NCBI RefSeq assembly: GCF_000020385.1
Contig: NC_010814.1
Location: 1,830,001-1,862,000, forward strand
DNA: 32,000 nucleotides
Direction of reading: 5' to 3'
From: Trichlorobacter lovleyi SZ
GTDB taxonomy: Bacteria > Desulfobacterota > Desulfuromonadia > Geobacterales > Pseudopelobacteraceae
The notes under the pieces are model-generated. The model had not been told where the DNA came from and did no database searches. It worked only from the letters and a program-made list of their open reading frames with translations. Position numbers and translations under genes: made by a program. Shown here one piece after another: positions 8,981 to 29,700 of this stretch. The first letter of the stretch is position 1. Each line of letters begins with the position of its first letter.

Positions 8981-10240
8981 TCAGGAGTTGCGGCGTTGCC
9001 CTTGAACAATACTGTTCCGCCAGTTGAAGGCGTCCAGTTGGGCAGCCAGCAGTTGGTCAAGGCTGATGGACAAGGCATCAAGCAGCTTCTGTACGACAAC
9101 AAAGTCTGCTTTTTCCAACCGCTCCGCCAATAACAACAACATACCGAGTTGCCCATCACGACGCAGCAGGGCATCAGCCATATCTTCGGACAGATTCAGG
9201 CTTTCAACTACATGTTCCATCGGGGTTTCGTAGAGGGCATCCAACAATGACAGGATACCGGTCAAAAAGGCGGTTTCCACAAGGTCGCTGGTACGGCTCT
9301 GACCGGTACGCTGCATCATCAGCAGTTCCATCAAGCGTCCCCGTACGGCAGCCATTTCAAGCAGCGGCGAGTTCAGACCCCGTTCATCCTTGCCGGCAAA
9401 CAGGGCCAGTTGTACCCAGCGCCGCAGATGGTTTATCCCCAGAATCATGATGGCATGACGGATATTCTTGATCTTCTCCCGCAGGCCGATCATGACCGAG
9501 TTAACCAGCTTCAGCAGGTTAAAGGTCAGGCTGGGGTTCTCCCGGAAGGTTTCTTCCACCTCATCAATATCCCAGTTCTCATTTAACTGTTGCAGCAGCT
9601 TCATCATGGCAATCCCGGAGGGATCAATCCGCTTCTGGCCTATAATGACCGGCCGTTCAAAAAAATAGCCCTGGAACAGTTCAAAACCGTACTCCAGGCA
9701 TTGCTCAAATACCTCGACGGTCTCAACCCGTTCTGCCAGCAGTTGAACCGGGTACTTTCGCAGGTTTGCCGCTATGCCGGACAGCTCAGCCGGGTCGGTG
9801 GCCATGATGTCCACCTTGACAATATCCACCATTTTGTAAAAGGCGGAGTGTTCCGGCGCATAGATATGGTCATCCAGGGCAATTTTAAAGCCCATTGACT
9901 TCAACTCACTGCAGCGCAGGCGAACGTTATCGTCAAGTTCGATGGTTTCCAGGATCTCCAGTACCGATTGTTGAATCGGCAACAGCTCCAGCATTTCCGA
10001 ATGCAGCACCCCGGCGGTGATATTCAGGAAGCCGAATTTGTCGCCCAGCACATCCTGGAGACCGAAATCCGACAATGCACTGGATATGACCGAAGCCGAT
10101 GCCTGGGCCTGGCTCTCAAACTGGGCAGTCGTGTGGTGACTGGCCGCCCTGAAGAGCAGTTCATAGCCGAAGATCTCCTGCTTGCGGTTCAGGATCGGCT
10201 GGCGGCCAATAAAAAATTTGAGGTCAGGTTCAATTGCCAT
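8981..10240 (-). CDS. EAL domain - HDOD domain protein (YuxH/COG3434-type c-di-GMP phosphodiesterase or receptor)
   Basis: FIGRQPILNRKQEIFGYELLFR (ELL variant of EAL), FLNI, LEILET, IALDDH, VKVD, LLAERVE and FQGYFF follow the EAL catalytic-residue order. The C-terminal half (LLKLVNSV..., ILGINHLRRWV) matches HDOD. Confidence 0.85.
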   Translation of the reverse strand: MAIEPDLKFFIGRQPILNRKQEIFGYELLFRAASHHTTAQFESQAQASASVISSALSDFGLQDVLGDKFGFLNITAGVLHSEMLELLPIQQSVLEILETIELDDNVRLRCSELKSMGFKIALDDHIYAPEHSAFYKMVDIVKVDIMATDPAELSGIAANLRKYPVQLLAERVETVEVFEQCLEYGFELFQGYFFERPVIIGQKRIDPSGIAMMKLLQQLNENWDIDEVEETFRENPSLTFNLLKLVNSVMIGLREKIKNIRHAIMILGINHLRRWVQLALFAGKDERGLNSPLLEMAAVRGRLMELLMMQRTGQSRTSDLVETAFLTGILSLLDALYETPMEHVVESLNLSEDMADALLRRDGQLGMLLLLAERLEKADFVVVQKLLDALSISLDQLLAAQLDAFNWRNSIVQGQRRNS

Positions 10241-11333: not shown

Positions 11334-12206
11334 TTAGTCCTTGCGATACACGGTGTTGGCCACCTGGGTAAAGGGAACCTCCAAGCCGTTTAACGTCTCA
11401 GAGTGTCCGATAAACAGGTATCCGCCAGTCACCAGCTGACGATGAAACTTGTGCATCAGTTTTGCCTGTGTCTGCTTGTCAAAGTAGATTACGACATTAC
11501 GGCAGAAAATGACATCCATTCGCTCACTGATACCGAACTGATCCTCCATGAAATTAACCCGCTTGAAGCTGACGCTGCTACGTAGTTCCGGGGCAATCCT
11601 GACCAGCCCCTTGCTGCGGTCTTTGCTGCGCAGCAGGTATTTCTTCTTCATGGAGAGCGGGATGGTGTCGGTCCGATCCTCGCCGTAGACTGCAGATGAA
11701 GCCTTTTTGATGACCTGAGTACAGATGTCCGAGGCCAGGATCGAGAACTTGAAGCCGTGGTTGGCAGCAGCATAATCACTTAACACCATGGCCATGGTGT
11801 ACGGTTCTTCACCGGTCGAACAGCCTGCAGACCAGATCCTGAAAGGATTCAAGGGGCTTTCGCCGGCCCCCCTGAGCTGCCGCATGGTGGGGATCGCCTC
11901 CCGTACCAGAAAATCAAAATGCTGTGGTTCACGGAAAAAATCGGTCTTGTTGGTGGTGACCACATCAATCAGCTGGATGATCTCCTGCTCTCGTCCCGCC
12001 GGAGAAAAGATAAAATCGGAGTATTCCTGAAAGCTGTGCATTCCCAATGCCTTCAGACGTTTCTGCAGTCTGGCTTCCAGCATGGTTTTCTTGGCAGGGG
12101 GCATCTTGATCCCTACCTCATCGTAGATCAACGCACTGAACTGCTCAAACTCCTTGTTGCGCATACTGCAGAGTTGTGGTGTGGCCTGGCCGCTGTCGTG
12201 GTTCAT
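11334..12206 (-). CDS. cheR: chemotaxis protein methyltransferase, full length (N-terminal helical domain plus SAM-MTase domain)
   Basis: [70 protein letters not shown]. Start placed at ATG 12206 (MNHDSGQ) with GGGAG 9 nt upstream. This removes the 35-nt overlap with cheY implied by the ORF-track start at 12245. Confidence 0.9.
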
Positions 12207-12210
12207 CAGG

Positions 12211-12579
12211 TTACTCCCGGGACAGCAGTTTGTTGACCGTTGCAAGCAGGTCTTCCTGCTTGACCGGTTTCATCAGCCATCCGCTGGCACCTGCGACCCG
12301 TGCCTGTTCAAACAGGTGCTTCTGCGAGTCGGTACTCATCACCAGCAACGGAGTGGAGGAAAATTGTGCCAACTGCCGCACCTCACGGACAATGGCAATG
12401 CCATCCTTGCCCGGCATGTTGATATCGGTAATGATCAGGTCCGGCTCTACCTCTTTGATTCGATCAAGGGCCAGCAGCGGATCAGATACGGTTTCAACCC
12501 GATGGCCGCCATGTTGCAGGGTGAACTTTGCGCTGAGCAACTGGGGCCTTGAGTCATCTATCAGCAGGATGGTTTTCAC
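12211..12579 (-). CDS. cheY: CheY-like single-domain response regulator
   Basis: 122 aa REC: ILLIDDS, DLIITDINMPGKDG, LLVMST, GASGWLMKP. It lies between an MCP gene and cheR. Confidence 0.85.
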   Translation of the reverse strand: MKTILLIDDSRPQLLSAKFTLQHGGHRVETVSDPLLALDRIKEVEPDLIITDINMPGKDGIAIVREVRQLAQFSSTPLLVMSTDSQKHLFEQARVAGASGWLMKPVKQEDLLATVNKLLSRE

Positions 12580-12610: not shown

Positions 12611-15082
12611 TCATACCGGACGGTATGCTAAGGCCTGTTGCCGCGTGCTGTTCAGGCTGAAGAAGGCGATGGTTGTCTTGAGCTGCTCGGCCTGACCAGC
12701 CAGCTCTTCGGTGGTGGAGGCCATCTCTTCAGCTGCCGAGGCATTCTGCTGAATCACCTGATCAAGCTGCTGAATGGCACGATTGATCTGGTCGGCACCG
12801 GCATCCTGTTCTTTACTTGAGGCAGAGATCTCCTGCACCAGCTCGGCAGTACGCTGGATATCCGGCAGGATGGCGGTCAGCATCTGACCGGCAGCCTCGG
12901 CCACCTGGACGCTGCGGCCTGACAGTTCACTGATCTCACCGGCGGCAGTCTGGCTGCGCTCTGCCAGCTTGCGGACTTCAGAGGCAACCACAGCAAATCC
13001 CTTGCCGTGCTCACCGGCCCGGGCTGCCTCAATGGCGGCGTTCAGAGCCAGCAGATTGGTCTGGCGGGCGATCTCTTCAATGATGCTGATCTTGGTGGCA
13101 ATCTCCTTCATGGCGGCCACGGTTTCATTGACCGCCTTGCCGCCCTCACGGGCATCGGTGGCCGACTTGTTGGAGATCTTCTCGGTCTGCGATGCGTTGT
13201 CAGCGTTCTGTTTAATGCTGGAGGACATCTCTTCCATGCTGGAGGAGATCTCTTCGGCAGAGGCAGCCTGCTCGGTTGCACCCTGGGACAGGGACTGGGC
13301 CGTGGCAGAGAGTTGCTGCCCGCCGGTGGCAATGCCGTCAGCTGCTGCCTGTACCTCCCGCACGATCTCCTTCAGCTTCTCCACCATGTTGGCCAGTGAT
13401 TCCATCAGGTCGTCGTTTTCGCTGCGCTTCTTCAGTTCAACCATCAGATTGCCCTGGGCAACCTGCTTGGCATTGGCGGTGATACTGTTGGTTGCTTCAA
13501 TCAGGACGTTCAGGTTGTTCTTGATGTCGTTGAAATCGCCATTGTAGTTATCGGTGATGATCCTGGGCATATCACCTTTGCTGATCCGGTCGACATACTC
13601 GGCTGCCACATTCAGGGGGCCGATCACGGCATCAAGGGTTTCGTTGACTCCGGCCACAATCGCACGGAAGTCGCCCTGGTGTTTGCCGGCATCAGCGCGG
13701 GTGGACAGCTTGCCTTCAACTGCGGCCTTGACTAACAGATTGGCATCGGCCACCAGCGCGTTCACCGCGTCAATGCAGGTGTTGAGATTGTTTTTGATCT
13801 CATTGAAATCGCCCTGATAACTGGCTGTTATTTTTGGTGGGATATCTCCTTTGGAGATCCGGTTGACATAGTCTGCTGCAACCTGCAGCGGTCCGATCAC
13901 CGCATCCAGAGTCGCATTTACCCCAGCAACAATGGCATGAAAGTCGCCTTGATGTCTGGTGGCATCAGCGCGGGTGGATAGTTTGCCCTCTACAGCAGCC
14001 CTGGCAAGCATATTGGCATCTGCCACCAAATGGGTGATCGCATCGATGCAACCGTTCAGGTTGTTTTTGATGTCGTTAAAGTCACCATTATAGCTGTCTG
14101 TTATATGCGGCGGGATATCACCCTTTGAAATCCGGTCGACATACTCGGCAGCCACGTTCAACGGGCCGATCACGGCATCCAGGGTGCCGTTAACTCCGGC
14201 CACAATGGCATGGAAGTCCCCCTTATGCTTCGTGGCATCAACCCGGGTGGCCAGTTTGCCGGCAATGGCAGCTTCGGACAGCAGGTTGGCGTCGGCCACC
14301 AGCGCCTTGATTGCCGTTACCATGTTTGCCATGGAAGCGATGATGCTGCCGTCAGGTGCCTGTTGCGCATCCAGATTAACCGAGAGATCTCCCTGCGAGA
14401 TCTGATTGGCGATCTCGCTGATTCTGACCGGATCATCCCCAAGATAACGGCCAAAGAAACGGCGTAGACTGAGCGACATCAGCACGGCACAGATTACAAT
14501 CAGGATCAGGGCAGCTGCTCCCAGCTTGACGGTTAAGCCAATGAAAGGTGCAAAGAACTCGCTCTGCTTGATACCAACGTACAGCACACCAATGGTTTTT
14601 CCCGCGTTGTCCCGAATCGGTTCGTAGGCGGTGTAATAGGTGGTACCAAGAATCCTGGTTTTGCCGTGAAATGCTTTGTTCTCCTTGAAGATTGCATCAT
14701 GGGCTTTGCCCTGAAGGGTGGTGCCGATGGCCCGCTTGCCCTCTTTGGTCAGCACATTGGTAGAGATACGGGTGTCCCCCATAAAGATGGTGGCAGTACC
14801 ACCGGTCAGTTCCTTGACCTTGTCGGGGATTTCAAAATTGTTATTGATCTGATAGGACCCGGCCAGCAGTTTGTTGTCTACAACAGAAAATGTGGTCCCT
14901 TTTTGATGCAGCAGTTCCTTCAGGGTCGCCATCCGGCTTTCCTGGTTGGCAATAGCAAACTTCTCGATCTGCACAAAGACCGAGTACATGGTCAGGGTTG
15001 TCAGGGCACCGATAATGCAGATAACAACCAGATTGTTGATGATCAGAAGCCTGGTATTGGTTTTCAGTGACCGCCAGAACAT
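12611..15082 (-). CDS. methyl-accepting chemotaxis protein: TM - single-Cache-like sensor - TM - HAMP - 3 x 91-aa poly-HAMP-like modules - HAMP - MCP signalling domain (~34 heptads by my count)
   Basis: Periplasmic segment [17 protein letters not shown]...GKRAIGTTL...[23 protein letters not shown] is sCache-like. Hairpin tip [41 protein letters not shown]. Methylation-type [16 protein letters not shown] sites. The ATG at 15082 has GGAGG 4-5 nt upstream. Confidence 0.92.
12657..14310 (-). repeat. dispersed direct repeat, copy A (3' 1.65 kb of the MCP gene), collinear with 15901..17554
   Basis: Landmarks at 12657/15901, 13568/16812 and 13805/17049 all share the same offset of 3244 nt, so no indels. 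Highest similarity is in the 3' ~0.9-1.1 kb. Confidence 0.9.
13484..14302 (-). repeat. in-frame tandem repeat, 3 x 273 bp (3 x 91 aa), inside the 12611..15082 MCP gene
   Basis: Landmark (c/g)atatc(a/t)cc recurs at 13568, 13841 and 14114, an exact 273-nt period. It encodes repeated ...GKL(A/S)TR(A/V)[33 protein letters not shown](I/M)P..IT..Y.GDFN.IKNNLN..I(D/E)A... Confidence 0.9.
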
Positions 15083-15104: not shown

Positions 15105-15596
15105 TTATTCCTGTGTTCCGCTGGTCTGCAGAGCGGCCATTTCCTGTTCAGAGAAGACCCGGTCGATATCCAGAATCATCACAAAATGTTCTTCATGCTT
15201 GCCCATTCCCTTGATGAACTCGGTGTTGAGGCGGGTACCGATATGGGGAGCCGGTTCAATCTGTTCCGGCTCCATCTCAACCACCTCCTGCACTGAATCG
15301 GCCAGGGCACCCAGAATAGTGGTGTCACCGTCAAGGGTTACTTCAACCACAATGATGCAGGTATTAATAGTTTGTTCTGTCGCATCCATGCCAAACTTGA
15401 GCCGCATATCTATGACAGGCACCACACTGCCCCGCAGATTGATGACCCCCCGCATAAATTCGGGTGTCTGCGGTACTTTAGTTATACTTGTAAACTCAAG
15501 TATCTCTCGTACTTTCGATACATCAAGGGCAAAGATCTCATCGTCCAGTTTAAAGGTCAGGTATTGGACAGTTTCTGTTATAGTTGAAACGGACAT
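15105..15596 (-). CDS. cheW: chemotaxis coupling protein CheW
   Basis: [23 protein letters not shown]...[32 protein letters not shown] is the CheW fold signature. Start at ATG 15596 with GGAGGA 4 nt upstream. The 26 extra residues in the ORF track are read-through of an intergenic palindrome. Confidence 0.92.
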
Positions 15597-15608
15597 AAAA
15601 TCCTCCTG

Positions 15609-15712
15609 AAGTGTGACGTTAGAAGAGTGAGGAGTGAAGTTAGAAGAGTGAAAAGGTTTTCTTTCACCCTTCACCCTTCACCCTTCTAACTTCACACTTC
15701 TAACTACACTCT
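15609..15712 (-). repeat. intercistronic imperfect palindrome (REP-like) between the MCP stop and the cheW RBS
   Basis: Core stem GTGAAGTTAGAAGAGTGAA (15634-15652) pairs with TTCACCCTTCTAACTTCAC (15678-15696) at 18/19 positions. The right arm carries 3 tandem CCCTTCA heptamers (15667-15687). Outer TTAGAAG/CTTCTAA and AGTGT/ACACT pairings extend it. It shares the GAAGGGTGAAG/CTTCACCCTTC motif with 21716..21776. Confidence 0.7.
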
Positions 15713-15719
15713 TGCCTTT

Positions 15720-18326
15720 CTAAAATTTCTCAAATTCATCATCCAGATGGTCTTTGCCCTTAGCGCCCAGGTCAATATGCACGCCACCGCTCTTGGCTTG
15801 TCTTGGTGGTGCCGTGTGGGTTACCAAGGGGCGTTGTTGCGGTGCAGGCCGGGCCGGTTGTTTGTGGGACAGAGCACGCTGGGTGCCGTGGGTGTCAAGA
15901 CTGAAGAAGGCGATGGTTGTCTTGAGCTGCTCGGCCTGACCAGCCAGCTCTTCGGTGGTGGAGGCCATCTCTTCAGCTGCGCTTGCGTTTTGCTGGATGA
16001 CCTGATCAAGCTGCTGAATGGCACGATTGATCTGGTCGGCACCGGCATCCTGCTCTTTGCTGGATGCACTGATCTCCTGTACCAGCTCGGCAGTACGCTG
16101 GATATCCGGCAGGATGGCGGTCAGCATCTGACCGGCAGCCTCGGCCACCTGGACGCTTCTCCCTGACAGTTCGCTGATCTCACCGGCGGCAGTCTGGCTG
16201 CGCTCTGCCAGCTTGCGGACTTCAGAGGCAACCACGGCAAATCCCTTGCCGTGCTCACCGGCCCGGGCTGCCTCAATGGCGGCGTTCAGGGCAAGCAGGT
16301 TGGTCTGGCGGGCGATCTCTTCAATGATGCTGATCTTGGTGGCAATCTCCTTCATGGCGGCCACGGTTTCATTGACCGCCTTGCCGCCCTCACGGGCATC
16401 GCTGGCCGACTTGTTGGAGATCTTCTCGGTCTGGCTGGCGTTGTCGGCGTTCTGCTTGATACTGGAGGACATCTCTTCCATGCTGGAGGAGATCTCTTCG
16501 GCAGAGGCAGCCTGCTCGGTTGCACCCTGAGACAGGGACTGGGCCGTGGCAGAGAGTTGCTGCCCGCCGGTGGCAACGCCGTCAGCTGCTGCCTGTACTT
16601 CACGTACGATCTCCTTCAGCTTGTCCACCATGTTGTAGAGTGATTCCATCAGATCATCATTTTCGCTGCGCTTCTTCAGTTCAACCATCAGGTTGCCCTG
16701 GGCAACCTGCTTGGCATTGGCGGTGATACTGTTGGTCGCTTCGATCAGTACGTTCAAATTATTCTTTATATCATTAAAATCGCCATTATAGTTGTCGGTT
16801 ATAGTCTTAGGCATATCACCTTTGCTGATCCGGTCGACATACTCGGCTGCCACATTCAGGGGGCCAATCACGGCATCGAGGGTTTCGTTGACACCGGCCA
16901 CAATGGCGCGGAAATCACCTTGGTGTTTGGATGCATCGGCACGGGTGGACAGCTTGCCTTCAACTGCGGCCTTGACCAGCAGGTTGGCATCGCCAACCAG
17001 TGCGTTGACCGCGTCAATGCAGCCGTTCAGGTTGTTTTTGATCTCGTTGAAATCGCCGTTGTAGTTGTCTGTAATACGAGGTGGAATATCGCCTTTGCTG
17101 ATCCGGTCAACATACTCGGCAGCTACGTTTAGCGGACCGATGACCGCATCCAGGGTGTCGTTGACACCTTGGACTATTTTGCGGAAGTCACCTTGGTGTT
17201 TAGTTGCATCAGCGCGGGTGGCAAGTTTGCCTTCGACTGCGGCGTTGACGAGCATGTTGGCATCGCCAACCAGGGCGTTAATGGCGTCCATGCAGCCGTT
17301 CAGGTTGTTTTTGATCTCATTGAAATCACCGTTGTAGCTATCGGTAATCTTGGGCGGGATGTCGCCCTTGCTGATCCGGTCGACATACTCGGCGGCAACG
17401 TTCAAAGGTCCGATTACGGCATCAAGAGTTTCGTTGACGCCAACCACGATCTTCTGGAAGTCACCCTGGTGCTTGGAGGCATCGGCACGGGTAGCAAGCT
17501 TGCCGGCAATGGCGGCGTCGGACAACATGGAGGCGTCTTTGATCAGGGCCTGGATCGCCTCGGCCATCTTGTTCATGGCTGCCTGCAGAATACCGGTCTC
17601 ATCCTTGGCAGTGCTGTCAAGTTGGACATCGGTGTTGCCGGCTGCAATTTTGTTGGCTGCATCAACACAGGCATTGATCGGGGTAACGATTGACTTGGTG
17701 ATAAACCAGCCCATGAAGATACCAATGATAAGTGATGCAATACCTAAGACCAGGACTATTGTTTTAGTCTGATTGGCAAGGGCGATCCCCTTTTTACCAG
17801 ATTCTTTGACCAGTTTTTTCTGGTAATCCATGAACTCGCCAATGGCTTTGAAATATTCAGCCTGTGATTGACGAAGCTTACTCGTAAGTAACTGAATAGC
17901 TTCATCACGTTTACCTGATTGGGACAGATCGATGACCTGCTTCTGATCAGCTTGCATTGCGGCACGTTTGTCCTTTACTGCTGCCATCAGTTTTCTGCCG
18001 CTGTCAGTCTTGATCATTTTTTCAAAGTCTTCAATGCCTTTGGTTATTTTCTCCCCTGCTTCCTTGACGCGGGCCAATTCTTTCTGGCGTTCAGCAGGTT
18101 CACTAACCAACAGCATGTTGCGGATAGCCCGGGCTGAGACGTTTGCGCTGATCCGTATGTCTGTCAACAGATCAATCTTTACAATTTTGTCCTCAATCAG
18201 GCTATCCATTTCGTTGTCAAGAGAGGTCACATTTACGTATGACACTACAGCAATAATTGTCAGTAGTATCAAGACCGCTGCAAATCCAACAGCCAACCGT
18301 TTACCAATCTTCATGTTCTTCAGCAT
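15720..18326 (-). CDS. methyl-accepting chemotaxis protein: TM - four-helix-bundle (4HB_MCP-like) sensor - TM - HAMP - 3 x 91-aa poly-HAMP-like modules - HAMP - MCP signalling domain - P/Q-rich linker - C-terminal EFEKF
   Basis: N-terminus [31 protein letters not shown] followed by an all-helical ~165-aa periplasmic region. Second [22 protein letters not shown]. The signalling domain is nearly identical to the 12611..15082 MCP. The ATG at 18326 has AGGAGG 8 nt upstream. Confidence 0.92.
15901..17554 (-). repeat. dispersed direct repeat, copy B, collinear with 12657..14310
   Basis: See copy A. Constant 3244-nt offset; the encoded proteins differ at about 8 of ~368 aligned residues from module 3 to AFFSL (counted by eye). 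Confidence 0.9.
16728..17546 (-). repeat. in-frame tandem repeat, 3 x 273 bp (3 x 91 aa), inside the 15720..18326 MCP gene
   Basis: Same module as 13484..14302, in the same register (offset 3244 nt). Protein modules run [30 protein letters not shown]... / [30 protein letters not shown]... / [30 protein letters not shown]... Confidence 0.9.
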
Positions 18327-18357
18327 ACTCTGTACCTCCTGTGGGTGTTTGAGTCTG

Positions 18358-18954
18358 TTACACAATCTCGCTGTTTCTGACGTTTTGCAGGGTGTTCAAA
18401 ATTGTTGAGCGTACATCGTTGTCAAAAGGTTCGTCATGCCCTGGATAGACCAGATCAATCTCCCGTTTTGACAGCTTAATCAGTGTTTCAATATAACCCC
18501 TTGTGTACCTTCCTCCGCTGGTTCGGATGCGTAGTTGGGTGTCGCCAGAGAACAGCAGCTTCTGTGACTGGCAGTAGAAGGCTACCGAGTCTGATGAATG
18601 CCCCGGTGTGTGCAGCACATCCAGATACTCGTCGCCCGCCTTTATGACCTGATTGTCTTTTAAAAGAGCATCAACACCCGGGCCGGGTACCCAGCCGTAG
18701 ACCCTGGCGCCGTATCTCTGCCGGAACAGGTCTGCCGAAGCCGCGTGGTCAAAATGATTGTGGGTCAGCAGCACCTGCTCAATTGCCACCTTGCCGCAGC
18801 CGGTATAGATCTTGTCAATCTCGTCCAGAATGTAGCCATCGGTACCCGGATCAATCAGGGTGTTGACGGCATCAATCTGGTTCCAGTCCCCCAATAGCAG
18901 ATATGAACGGCAGGTGTAGGTATTGGGGTTTCTGGCCAGCTGAATTACCCGCAT
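18358..18954 (-). CDS. metallo-beta-lactamase (MBL) fold hydrolase
   Basis: [13 protein letters not shown] (H-x-H-x-D-H), [19 protein letters not shown] follow the canonical MBL metal-ligand order. 198 aa. Confidence 0.8.
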
Positions 18955-18961
18955 ACAGTGG

Positions 18962-19570
18962 CTACCCCACCTTTCTAAACAGCTGAGCGTCTGGTGTCAT
19001 CGGTTCAAACAGGTGGCTGATCTCGGTCGGGATCTTTTGCGTGTTTTCTGTGGCAAAAAATCCACCGGGTGCCAGGCTGCGGTGATACATCCTCAAGACT
19101 TCAATCCGCTGTTCATAGGAGAAGTGCAGCAGCACATTCTTACAGACGATCAGCGAGTAATCAGAACCCACCGGCTGCAACTGCAGCAGGTCGTTGTACT
19201 TGAAAAAAACCCTATTACGGATGCGATCAATGACCTTGTGATAGCCGGATTTGCCCGCTACTTCTTCAAAATATTTGCGAAAGATCTCTGGTGGAATCCG
19301 TTGCAGCTCTTCGGTCTTGTATTCTGCAGCCGTGACAATATCGCCAAAGTTGTTTTCGCTGTCATAGTCAGTGGCATCCAGATACAGGGTGTTGAACCCC
19401 ATATCACCCATCCGTTCTGCAAACAGGATTGCCAGGGTGTACGGTTCCTGCCCCAAGGCACAGCCTGCATCCCAGACCTTGATTCTGAGGCGGCCTAAAG
19501 CCAGCTTCAGGGTGTGTTCAACGGCATATTCAAGGACTGGCAGGTCGCGGAAAAAGAAGGTAAAGGCCAT
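18962..19570 (-). CDS. CheR-like SAM-dependent methyltransferase lacking the N-terminal receptor-binding helical domain
   Basis: Begins directly at the conserved FFFRD motif (MAFTFFFRDLPVLEYAV), then IKVWDAGCALGQEPYTLAILF, LDATDYD, LIVCKNVLLHFS, PGGFFATE. It is 202 aa versus 290 aa for the full-length cheR in this window. Its ATG overlaps the cheA stop (TAATG). Confidence 0.75.
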   Translation of the reverse strand: MAFTFFFRDLPVLEYAVEHTLKLALGRLRIKVWDAGCALGQEPYTLAILFAERMGDMGFNTLYLDATDYDSENNFGDIVTAAEYKTEELQRIPPEIFRKYFEEVAGKSGYHKVIDRIRNRVFFKYNDLLQLQPVGSDYSLIVCKNVLLHFSYEQRIEVLRMYHRSLAPGGFFATENTQKIPTEISHLFEPMTPDAQLFRKVG

Positions 19571-21699
19571 TAGCCGAACTGCTCCTGTTCTATCATGGCT
19601 ACTGATTGCACCAACAGGCCCGGATCAAGGATCAGGGCCACCGTGCCATCCCCCAGGATGGTTGCGCCGGATATGCCGCGTACATCTCGATAAAGTTTGC
19701 CCAGGGTCTTGATGACAGTCTGGTGTTCACCCACCACATCATCCACCACAAAGCCGATCCGTTTGCCATTTACCGAGAGGATCACAATCTGTTCAATCTC
19801 CGGCTGGTTGGTGGCGATCTCAAATTCATCCCGCAGGTTGATGTAGGGGGTCAATTCGCCCCGTACATGGGCCAGGTGGCGGCCATGGGTGGCCTGTACA
19901 TCGGCACGGGTCAGTTCAATACACTCTTCCACCATGGTCAGCGGCAGTACAAAGTAGCTCTGGTCGATCCTGACCAGCAGAGTTTCGATGATGGCCAGGG
20001 TCAGGGGAATCCGCAGGGTGATGATCGATCCCTTACCCTGTTCGCTGGCAATGTCGATGGTGCCCCGCAACGCCTCAATCGCTTTTTTGACCACATCCAT
20101 GCCGACACCACGCCCTGAAACGCTGGTGACCTTCTGGGCGGTGGAGAAGCCGGGGGCAAAGATCAGGTTGTATATCTCTTTATCAGTCAGCTCGGTGGTG
20201 GCAGTGATTAGCCCCCGTTCAATCGCCTTGGCCTTGATCCGTTCTTTGTCAAGACCGGCGCCATCATCACGGATGGTGACCAGTACGCTATCGCCAGAGT
20301 GTACAGCTGCCAGATGGACAATCCCCTTGGCTGGTTTACCGGCTGCCTTGCGGACATCGGGCATTTCCACACCATGATCAATACTGTTGCGGATCAGGTG
20401 CACCAGCGGGTCGTTCAGCTTTTCAATAACGGTCTTGTCCAGCTCGGTCTCTGCGCCGGTTGTTTCCAGATCAATCTCTTTGCCCAGCTCTGCAGAGAGA
20501 TCCCGCACCAATCGTTTGAACTTGCTGAAGGTTGAACCGATCGGCAGCATCCGCATGTTAAGGGTAGTATCCCGCAGCTCAGAGATCAGCCGTTCAACCT
20601 CTTCTGCCACGGCACTGATTTCATTGTCGTGGCGGTTACCGGCGATCTGGGTCAGGTGGGCCTGTACCGTAACCAGTTCGCCCACCAGGTTCACCAGATG
20701 ATCCAGCCGTTCTGCCGGAACCCGGATTGAGAGGGAGGCTTCAGCTGCAGCCGGCGCCGCCGTAGTCCGCTCCTGACGGGCCTGTTTGACCTGTTGCTGC
20801 TCCAGAAGGGCTGATTGTACCTTTGAGACCGGTACCAGCCCCTGTTCCACCAGAATTTCGCCGAACCGCTTCTGCATGGAGAGGATCTTCTGCATCTCCA
20901 CCGGAGAGAGGTCTCCCCGTTCAACCAGAATGTCACCCAGTTTTTTATAGCTGGTGTCACCATCTGAAGTTGTTCCATCGTCAATCAGATCAATCTTCAG
21001 GTCGCAGTCATCTTCCACAAAGATGAAGACATCCTTGATCGCCTCAATGCCACGGGTTGTGGTGAGAATGATATCCCAGTAAAAATAGCAGTGTTCAGGG
21101 GTAAGCTGATCAAGGGAAGGGATGGCGTCCAGGTGGGCCATGACTTCACAGGAACCAAGGTCGCGCAGTTCATTCAGCAGGCTGATCGGGTTGGTGCCAC
21201 CCAGCATGATTTCCGGCAGCGGTTTGAAGCGGATGCGGTAGGTGCGGCTGGTGTCTGCTTCAGCTGATTGTGCAGGAGCAGCTGCAACAGGTTCCTGCTT
21301 CAGTTTGGTTGCCTGGGGTAATAGCTGTTGCAGGCCATCAATAATCCGCTGGCCGTTTGCTTCATCTGCCGGAGGGCCACCAGCCGATGCCTCCAGCATG
21401 GTGGTGATCTGGTCCCGTGCCTGCAGGGTAAGATCAAGCAGGCAACGGGTGACCTGCATCTTGCCGTTTCTGACCTGATCAAAGACCGTTTCAACCTCAT
21501 GGGTAAAGCGGGCAATGTCATCAAAGCCAAACATGGCACCGGAACCTTTGATGGTGTGCATGGCCCGGAAGACCCGATTGATCAGGTCGTTGTCCTGGGG
21601 GTTGTCCTCCAGTTCAAGCAGGGAGGTCTCCAGCTCGGCCAGCAGCTCACCAGCTTCTTCGCGGTAGGTGGCTATATGTTGTTCCTGTGGTGATGACAT
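19570..21699 (-). CDS. cheA: chemotaxis histidine kinase CheA (Hpt/P1 - P2-like - inserted tandem helical motif - P3 - P4 - P5)
   Basis: P1 FRAMHTIKGSGAMFG (phospho-His48). Dimerisation IRVPAERLDHLVNLVGELV. N/G boxes DPLVHLIRNSIDHG, DDGAGLD, GFST...SGRGVGMDVV. CheW-like P5 at the C-terminus. The ATG at 21699 has GGAGG upstream. Confidence 0.95.
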   Translation of the reverse strand: MSSPQEQHIATYREEAGELLAELETSLLELEDNPQDNDLINRVFRAMHTIKGSGAMFGFDDIARFTHEVETVFDQVRNGKMQVTRCLLDLTLQARDQITTMLEASAGGPPADEANGQRIIDGLQQLLPQATKLKQEPVAAAPAQSAEADTSRTYRIRFKPLPEIMLGGTNPISLLNELRDLGSCEVMAHLDAIPSLDQLTPEHCYFYWDIILTTTRGIEAIKDVFIFVEDDCDLKIDLIDDGTTSDGDTSYKKLGDILVERGDLSPVEMQKILSMQKRFGEILVEQGLVPVSKVQSALLEQQQVKQARQERTTAAPAAAEASLSIRVPAERLDHLVNLVGELVTVQAHLTQIAGNRHDNEISAVAEEVERLISELRDTTLNMRMLPIGSTFSKFKRLVRDLSAELGKEIDLETTGAETELDKTVIEKLNDPLVHLIRNSIDHGVEMPDVRKAAGKPAKGIVHLAAVHSGDSVLVTIRDDGAGLDKERIKAKAIERGLITATTELTDKEIYNLIFAPGFSTAQKVTSVSGRGVGMDVVKKAIEALRGTIDIASEQGKGSIITLRIPLTLAIIETLLVRIDQSYFVLPLTMVEECIELTRADVQATHGRHLAHVRGELTPYINLRDEFEIATNQPEIEQIVILSVNGKRIGFVVDDVVGEHQTVIKTLGKLYRDVRGISGATILGDGTVALILDPGLLVQSVAMIEQEQFG

Positions 21700-21780: not shown

Positions 21781-22146
21781 CTAGCCGAGTACTTTTTTCA
21801 CAACCGCGATTAGCTGTTCAGGTTTAAACGGCTTGACAATCCAGCCGGTGGCACCGGCAGCCTTGCCTTCTGACTTGCGGGATTCCTGGGATTCAGTGGT
21901 CAACATCACAATCGGGATGAATTTGTTCAGGGCGCCGCCACGAACCCCCTTGATCAGACCGATACCATCCAGGTTGGGCATGTTCAGGTCGGTGATCAGC
22001 ATATCCACCTTCTGGGTGCCCAGTTTGGCCAGGGCGTCCTTGCCATCCACCGCCTCAACCACGTCATAACCGGCCTGCTTGAGGGTAAAGCTTACCATCT
22101 GCCGTACACTTGCTGAATCATCAGCGGTCATAATCAGTTTTGCCAT
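21781..22146 (-). CDS. cheY: CheY-like single-domain response regulator
   Basis: 121 aa REC: IMTADDSASVRQ, DMLITDLNMPNLDG, IVMLTTES, GATGWIVKPF. It lies immediately upstream of cheA in the transcript. Confidence 0.88.
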   Translation of the reverse strand: MAKLIMTADDSASVRQMVSFTLKQAGYDVVEAVDGKDALAKLGTQKVDMLITDLNMPNLDGIGLIKGVRGGALNKFIPIVMLTTESQESRKSEGKAAGATGWIVKPFKPEQLIAVVKKVLG

Positions 22147-22147
22147 G

Positions 22148-22504
22148 TCAGTTTATTCCTCCACACCAGATACAGGGTAGGTCTGCGTTGTGTTTGCAGG
22201 TGGATTGGCGTTGCAGCCCAACACATTCAATAGTTTTTTTTACATCAGGGGAGATACAACCTGAAAAGTTAAAGCGTTTCTGAACACGTAGAGCGGTGCG
22301 ACAGGCTGAACAGATCAGCTGCATACCAGCAAGGTCAATTTCTTCGATGCCGGAAACATCAAGCAGGATATTGGTTGATGGTATCTCTTCAAGAAGCAGA
22401 CCGTGTAATTCTGCAGCGGTGTCAATGGCCAGCCTGCCTGCCACACTGATTTTCAGTGCGCTGCCGTCGCTACTGGTACTATGGGTAAGGGTCAGATCAG
22501 ACAT
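22148..22504 (-). CDS. STAS domain protein (SpoIIAA-like fold) with a Cys-rich C-terminal half
   Basis: LKISVAGRLAIDTAAELHGLLLE...NILLDVSGIEEIDLAGMQLI follows the STAS beta-alpha pattern. There are 7 Cys between residues 65 and 114. The ATG at 22504 has GGAGA upstream. The stop is 1 nt from the cheY ATG. Confidence 0.7.
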   Translation of the reverse strand: MSDLTLTHSTSSDGSALKISVAGRLAIDTAAELHGLLLEEIPSTNILLDVSGIEEIDLAGMQLICSACRTALRVQKRFNFSGCISPDVKKTIECVGLQRQSTCKHNADLPCIWCGGIN

Positions 22505-22519
22505 ATCGTCTCTCCGGTC

Positions 22520-24313
22520 TTAAAATAAATCAACATTATCACCAAACTCGGAATCACTGCCGGTACTGTCCTGCTGCTTCTGCAGTGAGAGTTGGACGCC
22601 ATGCCGCGCTGCCATCATTTCATGGATCATCCGTTCGCTTTCCATGGTGTAGCGCTGCTCCATGTGACGCAGGTTGTCTCGAAACTCATTTGAGGCCGGT
22701 ACCAGTGTCCGGGCCTCGGTATAAATCTGTTCAAGGGACTGTACTGCCTGTTCGGTCTGTTGCAGGATCTCTTCATGCACATGAATACTGGATGTGGTCA
22801 GATTAATTTCGTCTGAAAGTGACTCTGCCGTAATTGCCAGTGTTGAAAGCTGTTGCAGCAGGGAACGGTTAATGGCAGACAGGGATGAAATAATCTGCCG
22901 GGCCTCCTGCTCCATCTCGCTTACCTGGTTCGAACTGTCACCGGCCTCCAGAAAATTCAGATCCGTCATGCTGGCGGTGATACCGTTAATCGCTTGCAGT
23001 GTGCTTGAGACCGCCTCAGTCTGGACAACAGCCTCCAAAGAAAGTCGCTTGATCGCTTCAGCCAGTACCCCCAGAGCAGCCCCCTGAGGTCCGGTGTGGG
23101 CTGCCTTGATCTGGGCGTTCAAGGCGATCAGGTCGATCTCGGAACCAACCGCTTCGATATCACTGACAAATCCGCCTATCTCTGCCATGGTACCGGTTAC
23201 CTTCTGCATGGCAGTTGCAAGTTCATGGTCTGCCTTTTCACAGTTTTGCAGAATCAGGGTGACTTGATGCATCTCCTTTTCCATGGTTTCCAGGAGGGAA
23301 GTCTCGGCAGAACCCGAATTGCCCATCAGCGTCTGTTGTAATTCCAGGCTGATCTGGGTCTGTTTTGATCCAATATCCCGCAGGCTATCCAGAATGGTGT
23401 TTGTGGCCTTGCTCAGCTGGTCTGCGGCATGCCTGGTCTGTGCGGTTTGCAGTTCACAGATATCGCCGATTTCCGCAACCACGGCCGGACAGGTGTTGTC
23501 GTTGGGAGTTGCGTGACTGCAGGTATGTTGCATTAGTTTCTCAAGCGCCTCAATCACATGCTCGATCTGCTGCCGGGTGATGTCATGAAACTGCATGGAT
23601 GCCACCACCGCACCGATATCAGAAGCGATCTGTTCTGATATCAGGGCAACCTGATTGCCGGTGGCAGAGCAGGTGGTGTTCAAGCCAGACAGGGTCTCAA
23701 GGTTGTTGCCGACAGCGGTCAGGATCTTGTGAGCATCGGTGTACTGGTGTTCTTCTGTGGTGCGTACCATCTGCAGGTTGTTGCTGATCAACTGCGCCAG
23801 GGCCTGACGCTGGACCATGATGCCGGCAGATTTCTCACTGACGGTCTGGGAGAGCTTTTCAACATCCATGGCCAGGGTGGTAAAACCGGCTCCCAGTTCT
23901 CCCAGTCTGGCAGATTCAATCTTGGTGGAGATGGAGAGCATCCGCAGGGCCTTGTCCATCTTCTGAAACCCTTCCAGGGGTTGTATGACCTTGTCAAGCT
24001 GGACCATGATCTGTTCCAGGGTGCTGCAACTCTGGGTGCCCTGCCTGTTGACCCGCTCCAGATAGTCATTCATGTCACTGAACAGATGACGAAGCCGTTC
24101 TGTCAGCTGGCTGCTTTCAGAGCCGGCAACCAGTTCCACCAGCTCGCTGGAAACGGACGATATTTTTGAGGAGCGGATGGCGAAATCCTGCAGTTTTCCG
24201 CCCAACTCCAGAAACTGATCTTCTGTGCTGCCAGCCAGTCGTTGCAGAATCTGTATGGTAGGAGTCAGATTACTGCTCCATTGTACGACCTGATTGCAGA
24301 GATGCGGAGGCAT
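22520..24313 (-). CDS. soluble (TM-less) MCP-like protein with two signalling-hairpin-tip segments
   Basis: No hydrophobic TM segment. aa 123-155 LRMLSISTKIESARLGELGAGFTTLAMDVEKLS and aa 393-425 IDLIALNAQIKAAHTGPQGAALGVLAEAIKRLS each align to the canonical tip [33 protein letters not shown] at about 13-14 of 33 identities by eye. The rest is heptad-like and helical. Confidence 0.75.
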   Translation of the reverse strand: MPPHLCNQVVQWSSNLTPTIQILQRLAGSTEDQFLELGGKLQDFAIRSSKISSVSSELVELVAGSESSQLTERLRHLFSDMNDYLERVNRQGTQSCSTLEQIMVQLDKVIQPLEGFQKMDKALRMLSISTKIESARLGELGAGFTTLAMDVEKLSQTVSEKSAGIMVQRQALAQLISNNLQMVRTTEEHQYTDAHKILTAVGNNLETLSGLNTTCSATGNQVALISEQIASDIGAVVASMQFHDITRQQIEHVIEALEKLMQHTCSHATPNDNTCPAVVAEIGDICELQTAQTRHAADQLSKATNTILDSLRDIGSKQTQISLELQQTLMGNSGSAETSLLETMEKEMHQVTLILQNCEKADHELATAMQKVTGTMAEIGGFVSDIEAVGSEIDLIALNAQIKAAHTGPQGAALGVLAEAIKRLSLEAVVQTEAVSSTLQAINGITASMTDLNFLEAGDSSNQVSEMEQEARQIISSLSAINRSLLQQLSTLAITAESLSDEINLTTSSIHVHEEILQQTEQAVQSLEQIYTEARTLVPASNEFRDNLRHMEQRYTMESERMIHEMMAARHGVQLSLQKQQDSTGSDSEFGDNVDLF

Positions 24314-25347: not shown

Positions 25348-26478
25348 TTACTGGCTTTCCTGCACGGTTTCAGATGTTTCATTGGCTGGCAGGTAGATGG
25401 AAAACGTGGTTCCGCTGCCAGGTGCACTTTCAACACTGATGGTGCCACAGTGCTGTTTGACAATGCCATATACCATGGATAGTCCCAGTCCACTCCCCTT
25501 GCCGACCTCTTTGGTGGTGAAAAACGGATCAAATATCTTTGGAAGCAGTTCTCTGGGGATACCACACCCGGTGTCTGAGACGGTCAGATGGATGTAGGTG
25601 CCTGGTGAGAGTTCAAGCGCTGACGCTGATTTGCTGTCAAGCAGGATATGGGCTGTGGCAATGGTCAGCTGGCCGCCATCGGGCATGGCATCACGGGCAT
25701 TAATGGCCAGATTCATCAACATCTGTTCAATCATGCTGCGGTCTACGCTGGCATGGCTGGTGTTCTGGTCGCAGACAAAATTGAGGGTAATGTTGTCTCC
25801 GATGATCCTTCTCAGAAACTTCTCAAAGCTGGAAACCAGGGTACAGAGCTCCGCCTTTGACGGGGTTGCTTCCTGTTTGCGGCTGAAGGTCAGCAGGCTC
25901 TGGGTCAGGCTGGTGGCCCGTTTTGCCGCATCCACAATCATCTGCAGACTTTCATGGTTGGGATCTTCCGGTGGAGTCTGCATCAGCAACATGGTGCTGT
26001 AGCCCCTGATGACGGTCAGGATGTTGTTGAAATCATGGGCCACCCCGCCGGCCAGTATGCCGATCGCTTCCAGTTTCTGCGAGTGGCGCAGCCGTTCTTC
26101 GGCCTTTTTGATCCGCAGCATGACCTTGATATGGGCCACCAGTTCATGGCTTGAGATCGGCTTTTGCAGAAAGGCATCTGCTCCCAGGTCAAGGGCTCTG
26201 ACCCGGTCTTTTGAATCAACATCAGCAGCGGTGATGACAATAACCGGGATATAGGCAGTTGCCGGATTTTGCTTGAGACACCGGATGGTTTCATAACCAT
26301 CCATGTCAGGCATCTGCAGATCAAGCAGGATGGTGTCCGGGTGCCAGCTGCGCGCCAGGTCTAGCCCCTCCTTGCCTGAACAGGCGGTTTTCAGTTGGGC
26401 ATCGCTCAGGTGCTTTTCCAGGGTGCCTTTCATGACCAGCAGGTTGACGTTTGAATCATCAATGGCGAGAATTTTCAT
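25348..26478 (-). CDS. REC - HisKA-like - HATPase_c histidine kinase (receiver at the N-terminus, no TM, no sensor domain)
   Basis: REC: ILAIDDSNVNL, TILLDLQMPDMDG, VIVITA, FLQKP. H-box LAGGVAHDFNNILTVI. ATPase boxes NLAINARDAM, DTGCGI, GSGLGLSMV. Its ATG overlaps the upstream gene's stop (ATGA). Confidence 0.85.
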   Translation of the reverse strand: MKILAIDDSNVNLLVMKGTLEKHLSDAQLKTACSGKEGLDLARSWHPDTILLDLQMPDMDGYETIRCLKQNPATAYIPVIVITAADVDSKDRVRALDLGADAFLQKPISSHELVAHIKVMLRIKKAEERLRHSQKLEAIGILAGGVAHDFNNILTVIRGYSTMLLMQTPPEDPNHESLQMIVDAAKRATSLTQSLLTFSRKQEATPSKAELCTLVSSFEKFLRRIIGDNITLNFVCDQNTSHASVDRSMIEQMLMNLAINARDAMPDGGQLTIATAHILLDSKSASALELSPGTYIHLTVSDTGCGIPRELLPKIFDPFFTTKEVGKGSGLGLSMVYGIVKQHCGTISVESAPGSGTTFSIYLPANETSETVQESQ

Positions 26479-27728
26479 GGGGCAGGTACCGTTGAGTGCT
26501 TGAAGGGCAGGCAGCAGGTGAAACTGCTGCCCTGTTCCGGGCTACTTTCCAGGGTTAATCTGCCCCCCAGTTTGTCGCAGATGGAACGGACTATGGCCAG
26601 ACCAATGCCGCTGCCTTCGCTGCGGCGGGTCAGGTAGTGCTCCAGCTGGGTAAACGGCTGGAAGATAACTTCCTGACAGGCAATTGGTATCCCTTTTCCA
26701 TTGTCGCTTACCTGTACGCAGACCGAGGCTTCCTGGTGGTCAGTTGTGGCAGGTTCAGCCCAGAGATGGCAGCTGACCCTGCCGCCTCTGCCGGTGAATT
26801 TAAAGGCATTATCCAGCAGACATCCGGCAATGATATGCAGTGCATCCCACGGTCCCTGCAGGGGCAGGGAGGCCTGTTGGCCGCAACTGGTTTTAAACTG
26901 AATCCCCGTGTTGATGGCCATGGTCTGATAGCGGCTTTCAAGCGATTCCAAAGCCATGCAGGGGCTGTTAATGATATTGCCTGTTGAATGCTTTGCAGAA
27001 CGGGCCTCTGCAAGGGTCAGAAGATTGTTGACCAGCGTTGTCATGCGGTGGGCCGATGCCTTGAGCAGTGACAGGTACTCTGCCTGTGATGCTTGCACGC
27101 CCTGATCTTCCAGCAGTTGAACAGCTCCCACAATGCCATTCAGGGGGGTACGGAATTCATGGCTGATCAGACTTAAAAATTCACGTTTTAATTCGGCAAC
27201 TTCACTGGCTTTATGGTGTGCTTCCTGCAGCATTTCCAGCTGTTCGCAGAGTTGCTTGGTCTGTTTTGCCACCTGTTCTTCAAGATGAGTGCGGTATTGC
27301 TGTTCCAGACGCTGGGTCATCAGGAAGGCCAGTACCTTGGAGATGCACCAGTTGAGCTGGTCAAAATCTATCGGTTTAAAGAGCAGGTCAAAGGCGTGCT
27401 GTTTTAATCCTTCAACCACCAGATCAAAATCAGTGTAGCCGGTCATGAGTAGCGCTGGCAGTGCAGGCAGAAACTGGTGAACCGCTTCCAACAGGCGGAT
27501 ACCGTTCATGTCCGGCATACGGATATCAGTAATCAGCAGATCAATTCCAAGACCTTGCTGTTCGATGATTGCCAGGGCTTCATGGCCGCCAGGGGCGCAG
27601 ATCACCTGATACCCCTGTGCCTCCAGAAACGTTTGCAGCATCTTCAGCACCATCGGCTCATCATCAACCAGCAAAATGCTGGCTTTTATGGATGGCAGGA
27701 GGTTGTCAGGGGTTGATGATGCTTCCAT
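26475..27728 (-). CDS. REC - coiled coil - HisKA - HATPase_c histidine kinase (receiver at the N-terminus, no TM, no sensor domain)
   Basis: REC: ILLVDDEPMVLK, DLLITDIRMPDMNG, LLMTGY, LFKP. H-box LISHEFRTPLNGI. ATPase LLDNAFKFT, DNGKGI, GSGIGLAIV. Start set at ATG 27728 (MEASSTPDN) because the ORF-track start at 27785 lies inside the predicted -12 promoter element. Confidence 0.8.
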   Translation of the reverse strand: MEASSTPDNLLPSIKASILLVDDEPMVLKMLQTFLEAQGYQVICAPGGHEALAIIEQQGLGIDLLITDIRMPDMNGIRLLEAVHQFLPALPALLMTGYTDFDLVVEGLKQHAFDLLFKPIDFDQLNWCISKVLAFLMTQRLEQQYRTHLEEQVAKQTKQLCEQLEMLQEAHHKASEVAELKREFLSLISHEFRTPLNGIVGAVQLLEDQGVQASQAEYLSLLKASAHRMTTLVNNLLTLAEARSAKHSTGNIINSPCMALESLESRYQTMAINTGIQFKTSCGQQASLPLQGPWDALHIIAGCLLDNAFKFTGRGGRVSCHLWAEPATTDHQEASVCVQVSDNGKGIPIACQEVIFQPFTQLEHYLTRRSEGSGIGLAIVRSICDKLGGRLTLESSPEQGSSFTCCLPFKHSTVPAP

Positions 27729-27780
27729 GGGTAACTTTCTGGCGCAATCGGGAATGTGTCTGTTTGCTATTGTTTGTAAT

Positions 27781-27796
27781 TGCACTATATGTGCCA
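27781..27796 (-). promoter_or_regulatory. candidate sigma54 (-24/-12) promoter
   Basis: The minus strand reads TGGCAC-ATATA-GTGCA against the consensus TGGCAC-N5-TTGCW. GG and GC are at exact spacing, with one mismatch in the -12 box. It sits ~50 nt upstream of ATG 27728 and immediately downstream of a sigma54 activator gene. Confidence 0.55.
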
Positions 27797-27880
27797 GCGG
27801 AATGGTGTATTTTGCTTTGTATGTAAATTACCGTAAATATTCGGTAGTTTGTTTTTGCAAAGAGATTTTGATTTTATATA

Positions 27881-27934
27881 TGTGTCATCATAGTGTGTCA
27901 TGGCACAGTTGTGACACGTCAATAGTGTATCATG
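27881..27934. promoter_or_regulatory. candidate upstream activator sequence (EBP binding sites)
   Basis: Direct repeats TAGTGTGTCATGG (27891-27903) and TAGTGTATCATGG (27922-27934) are 31 nt apart. There is an extra TGTGTCAT at 27881. Inverted repeat GTGTCA-N11-TGACAC (27895-27917). The centre is ~110 nt upstream of the -24 box, with an AT-rich spacer (27820-27880) between. Confidence 0.4.
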
Positions 27935-29621: not shown

Positions 29622-29700
29622 GATTCCCCCGTTATTGACCTGCATACAAGTATGGTTTATAGGATAACGTGGTAAAAAGATTTTGCAAGCAGGAGCTGCT

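Follow-up and report, generated by a model that had tools for sequence, protein, structure and literature searches.

The 32,000-nucleotide stretch of Trichlorobacter lovleyi SZ DNA analysed here (NC_010814.1, positions 1,830,001 to 1,862,000; hereafter the window) encodes a chemotaxis cluster whose histidine kinase CheA contains, ahead of its dimerisation domain, two short repeats that resemble the cyclic di-GMP (c-di-GMP)-binding motifs of MshEN domains. The locus thus raises the question of whether this second messenger could act directly on the kinase. Motif and profile comparisons show that residues 253-301 of this CheA share ancestry with MshEN_N, a c-di-GMP-binding module. We read them as a compact, CheA-specific derivative of that module and as a probable c-di-GMP receptor on the tether between the P2 and P3 domains, a reading to which we give a probability of roughly 0.6.

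Translation of window positions 20797-20943 on the reverse strand gives KLGDILVERGDLSPVEMQKILSMQ-K-RFGEILVEQGLVPVSKVQSALLEQ, that is, CheA residues 253-301 with one motif at 253-276, a second at 278-301 and a single lysine between them, exactly as an earlier note made from the letters alone had described. The strict published motif, RLGxx(L/V/I)(L/V/I)xxG(L/V/I)(L/V/I)xxxxLxxxLxxQ, is 24 residues long and occurs as two tandem copies. Motif 1 fits it at 8 and motif 2 at 9 of the 11 defined positions, so that the counts first proposed (9-10 and 10-11) were slightly high for the strict form; with the relaxed version used for database searches by Wang et al. (2016, Nat Commun 7:12481, PMC5013675), the fits are 10/11 and 11/11. 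Both copies of an MshEN_N are thus present, and the sole non-conservative departure is an aspartate at position 11 of motif 1. The equivalents of the ligand-contacting residues (Arg1, Leu2, Gly3, Leu17, Leu21 and Gln24) are K253/L254/G255/M269/L273/Q276 in motif 1 and R278/F279/G280/V294/L298/Q301 in motif 2. None of 20,000 shuffles of CheA produced a tandem pair at 10/11 or better, and the six-frame translation of the window held no other in-gene match at that level.

The likeness extends from the motif to whole-family comparisons. The NF053729 model (c-di-GMP_motif, MshE-related) matched the isolated segment at 40.4-41.2 bits, above its cut-off of 38, the match being split into two stretches rather than forming one 53-position alignment. 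It also matched all 29 diverse CheA inserts that we assembled (best E-value 2.4e-15), and weaker matches of the insert were to the MshEN-bearing NfrB and EpsG. As a single sequence, the insert retrieved Thermus PilF (1.6e-6) and Vibrio cholerae MshE (5HTL, 1.7e-3) from the PDB. A profile built from the 29 inserts reached PilF (3.3e-21), the isolated "c-di-GMP binding domain of PilF" (2e-7), Geobacter PilB (5e-8) and MshE (2.1e-7); its 14 best PDB matches were without exception PilF, PilB or MshE, members of the MshEN-carrying family of type IV pilus assembly ATPases, and no unrelated protein appeared under an E-value of about 0.08. All alignments of the segment to MshE or PilF open a gap of 4-6 residues at the motif junction and therefore point to an MshEN_N homologue that is four residues shorter at the spacer. 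The NF053729 match, the PDB profile matches and the conserved contact equivalents bear out the MshEN-like identity first suggested for the segment.

The host protein is a CheA, since it presents P1, P2, P3, P4 and P5 in order and lies in a che operon. NF007835 (CheA) scored 468 bits on it, below the equivalog cut-off of 793, and the full-length AlphaFold model matched the CheA P3-P5 structures 8c5v and 1b3q at about 1e-33 in Foldseek. A Pfam scan of CheA gave no match to a P2 family; in the full-length model, residues 152-240 form a strand-helix-strand-strand-helix-strand arrangement (predicted local distance difference test score, pLDDT, mostly 70-89) that resembles the P1-CheY/P2 complex 2lp4. 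The motif pair falls between residues 240 and 324, the position that defines the MshEN_N-containing CheA architecture. Aligned with the CheA of E. coli K-12, the window CheA has about 46 columns over the module to which the E. coli sequence offers no counterpart; relative to classical CheA, the module has thus been inserted between P2 and P3, as the earlier note had claimed.

Both motifs and exactly one spacer residue are kept in all of the 120 closest orthologues (69-100% identity), among which both flanking linkers vary and the segment is conserved above either of them. When residues 240-320 were searched exhaustively against 1.84 billion cluster representatives, 487 matches came back at E<=1e-3; 90 of the best 150 are CheA-like, and some of the best 150 are TPR proteins, which we took as low-complexity false positives. 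Motif pairs with a one-residue spacer lay in CheA-like proteins in 39 of 40 cases, the fortieth being a 96-residue CheA fragment that breaks off within the first part of P3, and the modal spacer of the non-CheA MshEN-like matches was 5. Judged from these sequences, the one-residue spacer is CheA-specific. All 28 full-length representatives (35-54% identity) have the CheA domains and the module. Across the 29 inserts (38-78% segment identity), G255, G280 and Q301 are each found in 29/29 and are thus invariant in the clade, L298 is kept in 28/29 and the L254 position is L or I in 29/29; positions 17 and 21 carry a hydrophobic residue in both motifs of every insert, all pocket hydrophobics being retained, and position 1 of motif 1 is R or K in 25/29. 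Scanning one genome per species with the pattern LGEIL[VL]ERG (alignment subset A4) found a relative in at least 349 genomes, a lower bound because the pattern misses variants such as LGDILVERG of the window itself. Carriers include Geobacteraceae, Desulfuromonadales, Desulfobulbales, Desulfobacterales, Desulfovibrionaceae, Nitrospirota, Brocadiaceae and Spirochaetales.

Two other arrangements were seen among the representatives. P0185, a 263-residue CheA fragment, has three MshEN-type motifs in a row with single-lysine spacers (NKIGEVLIEKG...EQ K KLGEILVEAG...EQ K KIGQILIESG...QQ), and the one-residue-spacer unit can therefore be iterated. P0121, P0122, P0125, P0135, P0136 and P0161 (780-1180 residues) combine Hpt domains with 8-11 MshEN-like motifs at spacers of 6-7 residues, P0121 having dockerin and bacterial TSP3 repeats in addition; this Hpt and MshEN-array architecture was not seen in the available portions of the tables of Wang et al. 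(PMC5013675).

The full-length AlphaFold model, built on the more diverse of two alignments (mean pLDDT 82), gives the insert four helices (254-261, 266-273, 279-285 and 291-314; pLDDT 79-88), with a five-residue break at SMQKR (274-278). The helices of MshEN_N are 8, 12, 10 and 14 residues long (Wang et al., PMC5013675); those of the insert follow the same order, the two central ones each being about one turn shorter. Low-confidence linkers flank the module at 241-252 and 315-328, pLDDT falling below 50 at 316-325, where the length of the linker to P3 also differs among homologues. Foldseek matches of the full-length model to the PDB were dominated by CheA P3-P5 and histidine kinases.

A CheA with this composition already has a place in the literature. 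Wang et al. (2016, PMC5013675) report that MshEN associates with CheA, list the architecture HPT-P2-MshEN_N-P3-P4-P5 in their Supplementary Table 4 and analyse other G. lovleyi proteins; their Supplementary Table 6 gives a dissociation constant of 2.6 uM, by isothermal titration calorimetry, for c-di-GMP binding to residues 261-390 of the Aeromonas veronii CheA EKB11881. The earlier note had thought that a c-di-GMP-sensing insertion inside CheA would be unusual. That view does not stand, given the published architecture, the presence of a Desulfovibrio CheA (DVU_1594) in the published alignment and the number of genomes that encode a relative. The feature is genuine and it is not new: CheA with MshEN_N between P2 and P3 has been on record since 2016 and is spread over hundreds of species.

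The sequences establish homology, insertion, conservation and distribution. To bind c-di-GMP is the most likely function and plausible for the one-residue-spacer form, the published support being one relative with a different spacer; this binding and any effect on the kinase are inferred. The module would be a separate small helical unit on a flexible tether that runs from the CheY-binding P2 to the P3 dimerisation domain. Each motif would contribute Lys/Arg-Leu/Phe-Gly at its N-terminal end and hydrophobic-xxx-Leu-xx-Gln at its C-terminal end, the c-di-GMP pocket being formed jointly by both motifs, as in MshE. Bound ligand could then make the P1-P2 arm compact or dock differently, or make the tether self-associate, and thereby alter the access of P1 to P4 or the delivery of CheY/CheB by P2 to P1, so that chemosensory output would follow the cellular c-di-GMP level. 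Compaction, docking or self-association of the tether seems likelier than rigid coupling to P3 because the linkers on either side of the module are modelled with low confidence.

Several observations weigh against a c-di-GMP receptor. The five-residue spacer of MshEN_N is absent, a single residue (K277) standing in its place and the module measuring 49 rather than 53 residues. The geometry of this junction matters because each guanine pocket of MshE is built from both motifs (Wang et al., PMC5013675), and it is here that the two AlphaFold models differ. The fragment model (residues 250-312, shallow orthologue alignment, pLDDT 91) has helices at 254-261, 266-285 and 291-311, one of them continuous through the spacer, where the full-length model has a break. 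Its first PDB match in Foldseek is MshE 5htl, at a level that is not significant (E 3, template modelling score (TM) 0.42, root-mean-square deviation 9 A). Among the 29 inserts, the terminal glutamine of motif 1 is Q in just 15, being otherwise R, K, H or N, the initial arginine of motif 2 is R or K in just 17, and aspartate occupies the core hydrophobic position 11 of motif 1 in 25. On the whole CheA, NF053729 scored 33 bits, under its cut-off. The Pfam T2SSE_N model (PF05157), which had been proposed as a check, gave no match at E<=10 to the whole CheA or to an 87-residue fragment, the scan adding just a sub-threshold DUF4388 match; this miss is uninformative because, as Wang et al. align it, PF05157 begins only within motif II and mostly spans MshEN_C, which CheA lacks. 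The sole CheA fragment with an assay in the tables of that paper, the one from A. veronii, has a nine-residue spacer and a modest affinity. Finally, literature searches including reviews found no effect of c-di-GMP on the activity of any CheA.

The alternative that survives best takes the segment as an MshEN_N descendant that no longer binds a nucleotide and acts on the P2-P3 tether as a small helical spacer or as a site for protein contacts: it might set the reach of P1 and P2, make a dimer contact beside P3 or dock a co-conserved partner such as the STAS or chemoreceptor-like protein encoded upstream, and it would then be comparable to the N-domains of XpsE/GspE, which keep the fold and have lost c-di-GMP binding. 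A spacer of one residue that is CheA-specific and invariant in 120 orthologues fits such a role, as do the central helices fused in the fragment model, which does not superpose on 5htl, and the aspartate at a usually hydrophobic core site together with the poorly conserved motif 1 glutamine and motif 2 arginine. The stretch LGEILVERGD is moreover conserved very strongly, more than the generic motif demands, and loss of binding has precedent among MshEN homologues such as XpsE (Wang et al., PMC5013675). In XpsE, however, the loss involves both Gly, the Leu positions and the Gln (same source), whereas here Gly255, Gly280, Leu298 and Gln301 vary little or not at all and every pocket hydrophobic is kept. 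The A. veronii insert does bind c-di-GMP, and the full-length model restores four helices. We regard a non-binding descendant as possible, on balance unlikely.

It is distinctly doubtful that the one-residue-spacer form is instead a structurally distinct, CheA-specific receptor in which, as modelled from the fragment, continuous central helices would leave the pockets to be completed between dimer subunits above P3, c-di-GMP (or 3',3'-cyclic GMP-AMP, cGAMP, in Geobacter) clamping both P2-P3 tethers and gating trans-autophosphorylation. Such a domain-swapped dimer was dropped as the principal reading when the full-length model, on its diverse alignment, broke the helix at 274-278.

3',3'-cGAMP is a second messenger in Geobacter species, known from the literature on Hypr-GGDEF enzymes and GEMM-Ib riboswitches. 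The module might then bind this or another cyclic dinucleotide, the altered spacer retuning its specificity; the host genome is of the Trichlorobacter/Geobacter lovleyi type, and the scaffold can take cGAMP, since V. cholerae MshEN binds it weakly (Fig. 1 legend, PMC5013675). The same module with the same spacer nevertheless occurs in Nitrospirota, Desulfovibrionaceae, Desulfobulbales, Brocadiaceae and Spirochaetales, well outside the Geobacter lineage, and the neighbouring EAL gene belongs to the c-di-GMP phosphodiesterase family. Backbone-amide recognition of guanine O6/N7 by the invariant glycine is kept in both motifs and therefore favours two guanines. Another ligand is quite improbable. 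As for a chance likeness in a generic helical linker found in most CheAs, in favour of which one can cite that Pfam assigns no domain to the segment, and which the earlier note had named as an adverse outcome in the form of a linker lacking motif conservation, it is refuted by the profile match to PilF, the shuffles and the alignment to E. coli CheA, which has no such segment, and the conservation of the motifs far above their flanks leaves it practically no room. A c-di-GMP receptor thus remains the reading that we prefer.

Coordinates of cheA, its parts and the surrounding chemotaxis genes are collected below; gene presence was counted in 29 related loci with long flanks, called long loci in the table.

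Table. Position in the window of cheA, of its domains and of neighbouring chemotaxis genes
Feature	Coordinates	Strand	Basis and occurrence
cheA, 709 residues, five-domain chemotaxis histidine kinase with insert	19570..21699	-	open reading frame, Pfam, Foldseek
P1 (Hpt), residues 10-104	21388..21672	-	Pfam PF01627, 62.4 bits; helical bundle in full-length model
P2-like alpha/beta domain, residues 152-240	20980..21246	-	full-length AlphaFold model; Foldseek match 2lp4
Acidic, variable linker, residues 241-252	20944..20979	-	varies among orthologues; pLDDT about 60
MshEN-type motif 1, KLGDILVERGDLSPVEMQKILSMQ, residues 253-276	20872..20943	-	translation and motif scoring
Spacer K277, one residue	20869..20871	-	translation; invariant length in 120 orthologues
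MshEN-type motif 2, RFGEILVEQGLVPVSKVQSALLEQ, residues 278-301	20797..20868	-	translation and motif scoring
Basic extension of last helix (to about 314), then flexible P3 linker, residues 302-328	20716..20796	-	full-length model
P3 dimerisation domain (H-kinase_dim), residues 324-382	20554..20730	-	Pfam PF02895, 50 bits; helical hairpin 329-383
P4 ATP-binding kinase domain (HATPase_c), residues 430-567	19999..20412	-	Pfam PF02518; Foldseek TM 0.9 to CheA P4 structures
P5 CheW-like domain, residues 573-699	19603..19983	-	Pfam PF01584, 99.4 bits
cheY, directly upstream of cheA	21781..22146	-	Pfam Response_reg
STAS protein, anti-sigma-antagonist-like, upstream of cheY	22148..22504	-	Pfam STAS_2; 14/29 long loci
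597-residue protein, weak methyl-accepting chemotaxis protein (MCP) signalling-domain match	22520..24313	-	Pfam MCPsignal, 45 bits; 17/29 long loci
Poly-HAMP chemoreceptor, 4HB sensor	15720-18365	-	Pfam
cheW, between two chemoreceptors	15105-15674	-	Pfam; CheW in 18/29 long loci
Poly-HAMP chemoreceptor, sCache_3 sensor	12611-15082	-	Pfam
Single-domain response regulator	12211-12579	-	Pfam
cheR	11334-12245	-	Pfam; 25/29 long loci
cheB	10265-11329	-	Pfam; 22/29 long loci
EAL-HDOD, putative c-di-GMP phosphodiesterase, last gene of same-strand che cluster	8981..10240	-	Pfam

In transcription order the cluster encodes a response regulator, the 597-residue MCP-like protein, the STAS protein, CheY, CheA, a short CheR-like methyltransferase and a metallo-beta-lactamase-fold protein, followed by a poly-HAMP MCP, CheW, a second poly-HAMP MCP, a response regulator, CheR, CheB and the EAL-HDOD protein. 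CheY is encoded beside the insert-bearing cheA in 27 of the 29 loci, at 58-92% identity. The genes for the MCP-like and STAS proteins (22148-24313) sit directly upstream of cheY-cheA and are co-conserved with the insert-bearing CheA. A paper on che clusters of Geobacter (PMC2577667) makes no mention of the insert, EAL or HDOD.

The EAL-HDOD protein has Pfam matches of 47.9 bits (weak) to EAL and 51.3 bits to HDOD. It has ELL in place of EAL and, judged by eye, keeps this and the other catalytic residues (N, E, DD, K, E and Q), so that it is plausibly an active phosphodiesterase. The earlier note had coupled this gene to the insert as the one that closes the operon. The gene is indeed there, last in the cluster, and the link is limited to Geobacteraceae: it follows cheB in 7 of the 29 loci, essentially Geomonas and Trichlorobacter, so that its pairing with the insert-bearing CheA belongs to one lineage and does not go with the module as such. 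Relatives at 48-78% identity were seen in loci L007, L014, L016, L030, L033, L039, L043 and L060. In Geobacteraceae the putative enzyme encoded at the end of the cluster could lower c-di-GMP locally.

Directly after cheA lies the gene for a 202-residue CheR-like S-adenosylmethionine methyltransferase that has no CheR N-terminal domain, the start of which overlaps the stop codon of cheA at 19570; the gene for a 198-residue metallo-beta-lactamase-fold protein comes next (together 18358-19570, reverse strand). In at least nine related loci, L010, L015, L019, L024, L044 and L064 among them, the two genes again occur together after a cheA that has the insert, with identities of 38-61%, and the window cluster also has a normal, full-length cheR (11334-12245). 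Both chemoreceptors place three HAMP_2 repeats (328-347 bits) between sensor and signalling domains. Immediately upstream of the che genes is one for a cytochrome P460 (24753-25223, reverse strand), which also turns up close to the cluster in several loci of Geobacteraceae (L001, L013, L018, L024, L039 and L043). Further upstream on the same strand, positions 25348-29741 hold two REC-HisKA-HATPase kinases and a REC-PAS sigma-54 activator in a row, which may form a regulatory module for the neighbourhood.

As both the idea and the first binding measurement date from 2016, the window offers a well-defined test case rather than a discovery, and the one-residue spacer is the only aspect here that might repay more work; later literature yielded no assay of a short-spacer CheA. 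Should the module bind c-di-GMP, the messenger of the motile-to-sessile transition would act directly on the central chemosensory kinase, in contrast to known inputs, which act on receptors, CheR or the motor. Its carriers, at least 349 species genomes, comprise Geobacteraceae, sulfate reducers, Nitrospirota (including magnetotactic ones), anammox bacteria and spirochaetes, and a single biochemical finding would thus annotate many pathways of environmental importance at once.

Among known systems, the A. veronii CheA is like the window CheA in having five domains and an MshEN_N-type pair between P2 and P3; its spacer is of about nine residues and position 1 of its motif 1 is M, against one residue and K here (PMC5013675). 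Desulfovibrio vulgaris DVU_1594, also a CheA, is likewise of the short-spacer form: in Supplementary Fig. 3c, which aligns MshEN_N sequences, it reads YKRLGEILLERGDV...EEQR----P..ELL...SALAEQ with a four-residue gap at the spacer, and Desulfovibrionaceae loci are among the relatives of the window CheA; Supplementary Table 6 of the same paper (PMC5013675) yielded no binding measurement for it. V. cholerae MshE (MshEN, 5HTL) shares the two tandem 24-residue motifs and the key residues, with identities, counted by eye, of 10/24 in motif 1 and 6/24 in motif 2. It differs by a five-residue spacer, a 53-residue module, an MshEN_C subdomain and a C-terminal secretion ATPase, whereas the module of the window has 49 residues, lacks MshEN_C and is internal to a kinase. 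The best PDB sequence match, Thermus thermophilus PilF (6F8L, 8PDK and others), was matched in four repeated domains; its spacers are of 4-7 residues and its host, unlike CheA, is a type IV pilus assembly ATPase. In E. coli NfrB, a C-terminal MshEN domain allows c-di-GMP to activate a glycosyltransferase allosterically (reviewed in PMC10118264). NfrB thus shares the fusion of MshEN_N to an enzyme other than an ATPase, and its model NF008411 matches 25 of the 29 CheA inserts weakly; the NfrB module is C-terminal with a normal spacer, whereas that of CheA is internal. Other c-di-GMP inputs to chemotaxis are the PilZ chemoreceptors (Tlp1, Cbp1), MapZ with CheR1, the motor brakes of the YcgR type and the CheY-like Cle proteins. 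All of these follow the same logic, in which the second messenger biases chemosensory output. Their points of action, however, are the receptor, the methyltransferase or the motor, and the domains they use are of the PilZ or receiver-like type, whereas here the target would be the kinase itself, by way of a predicted MshEN-type receptor.

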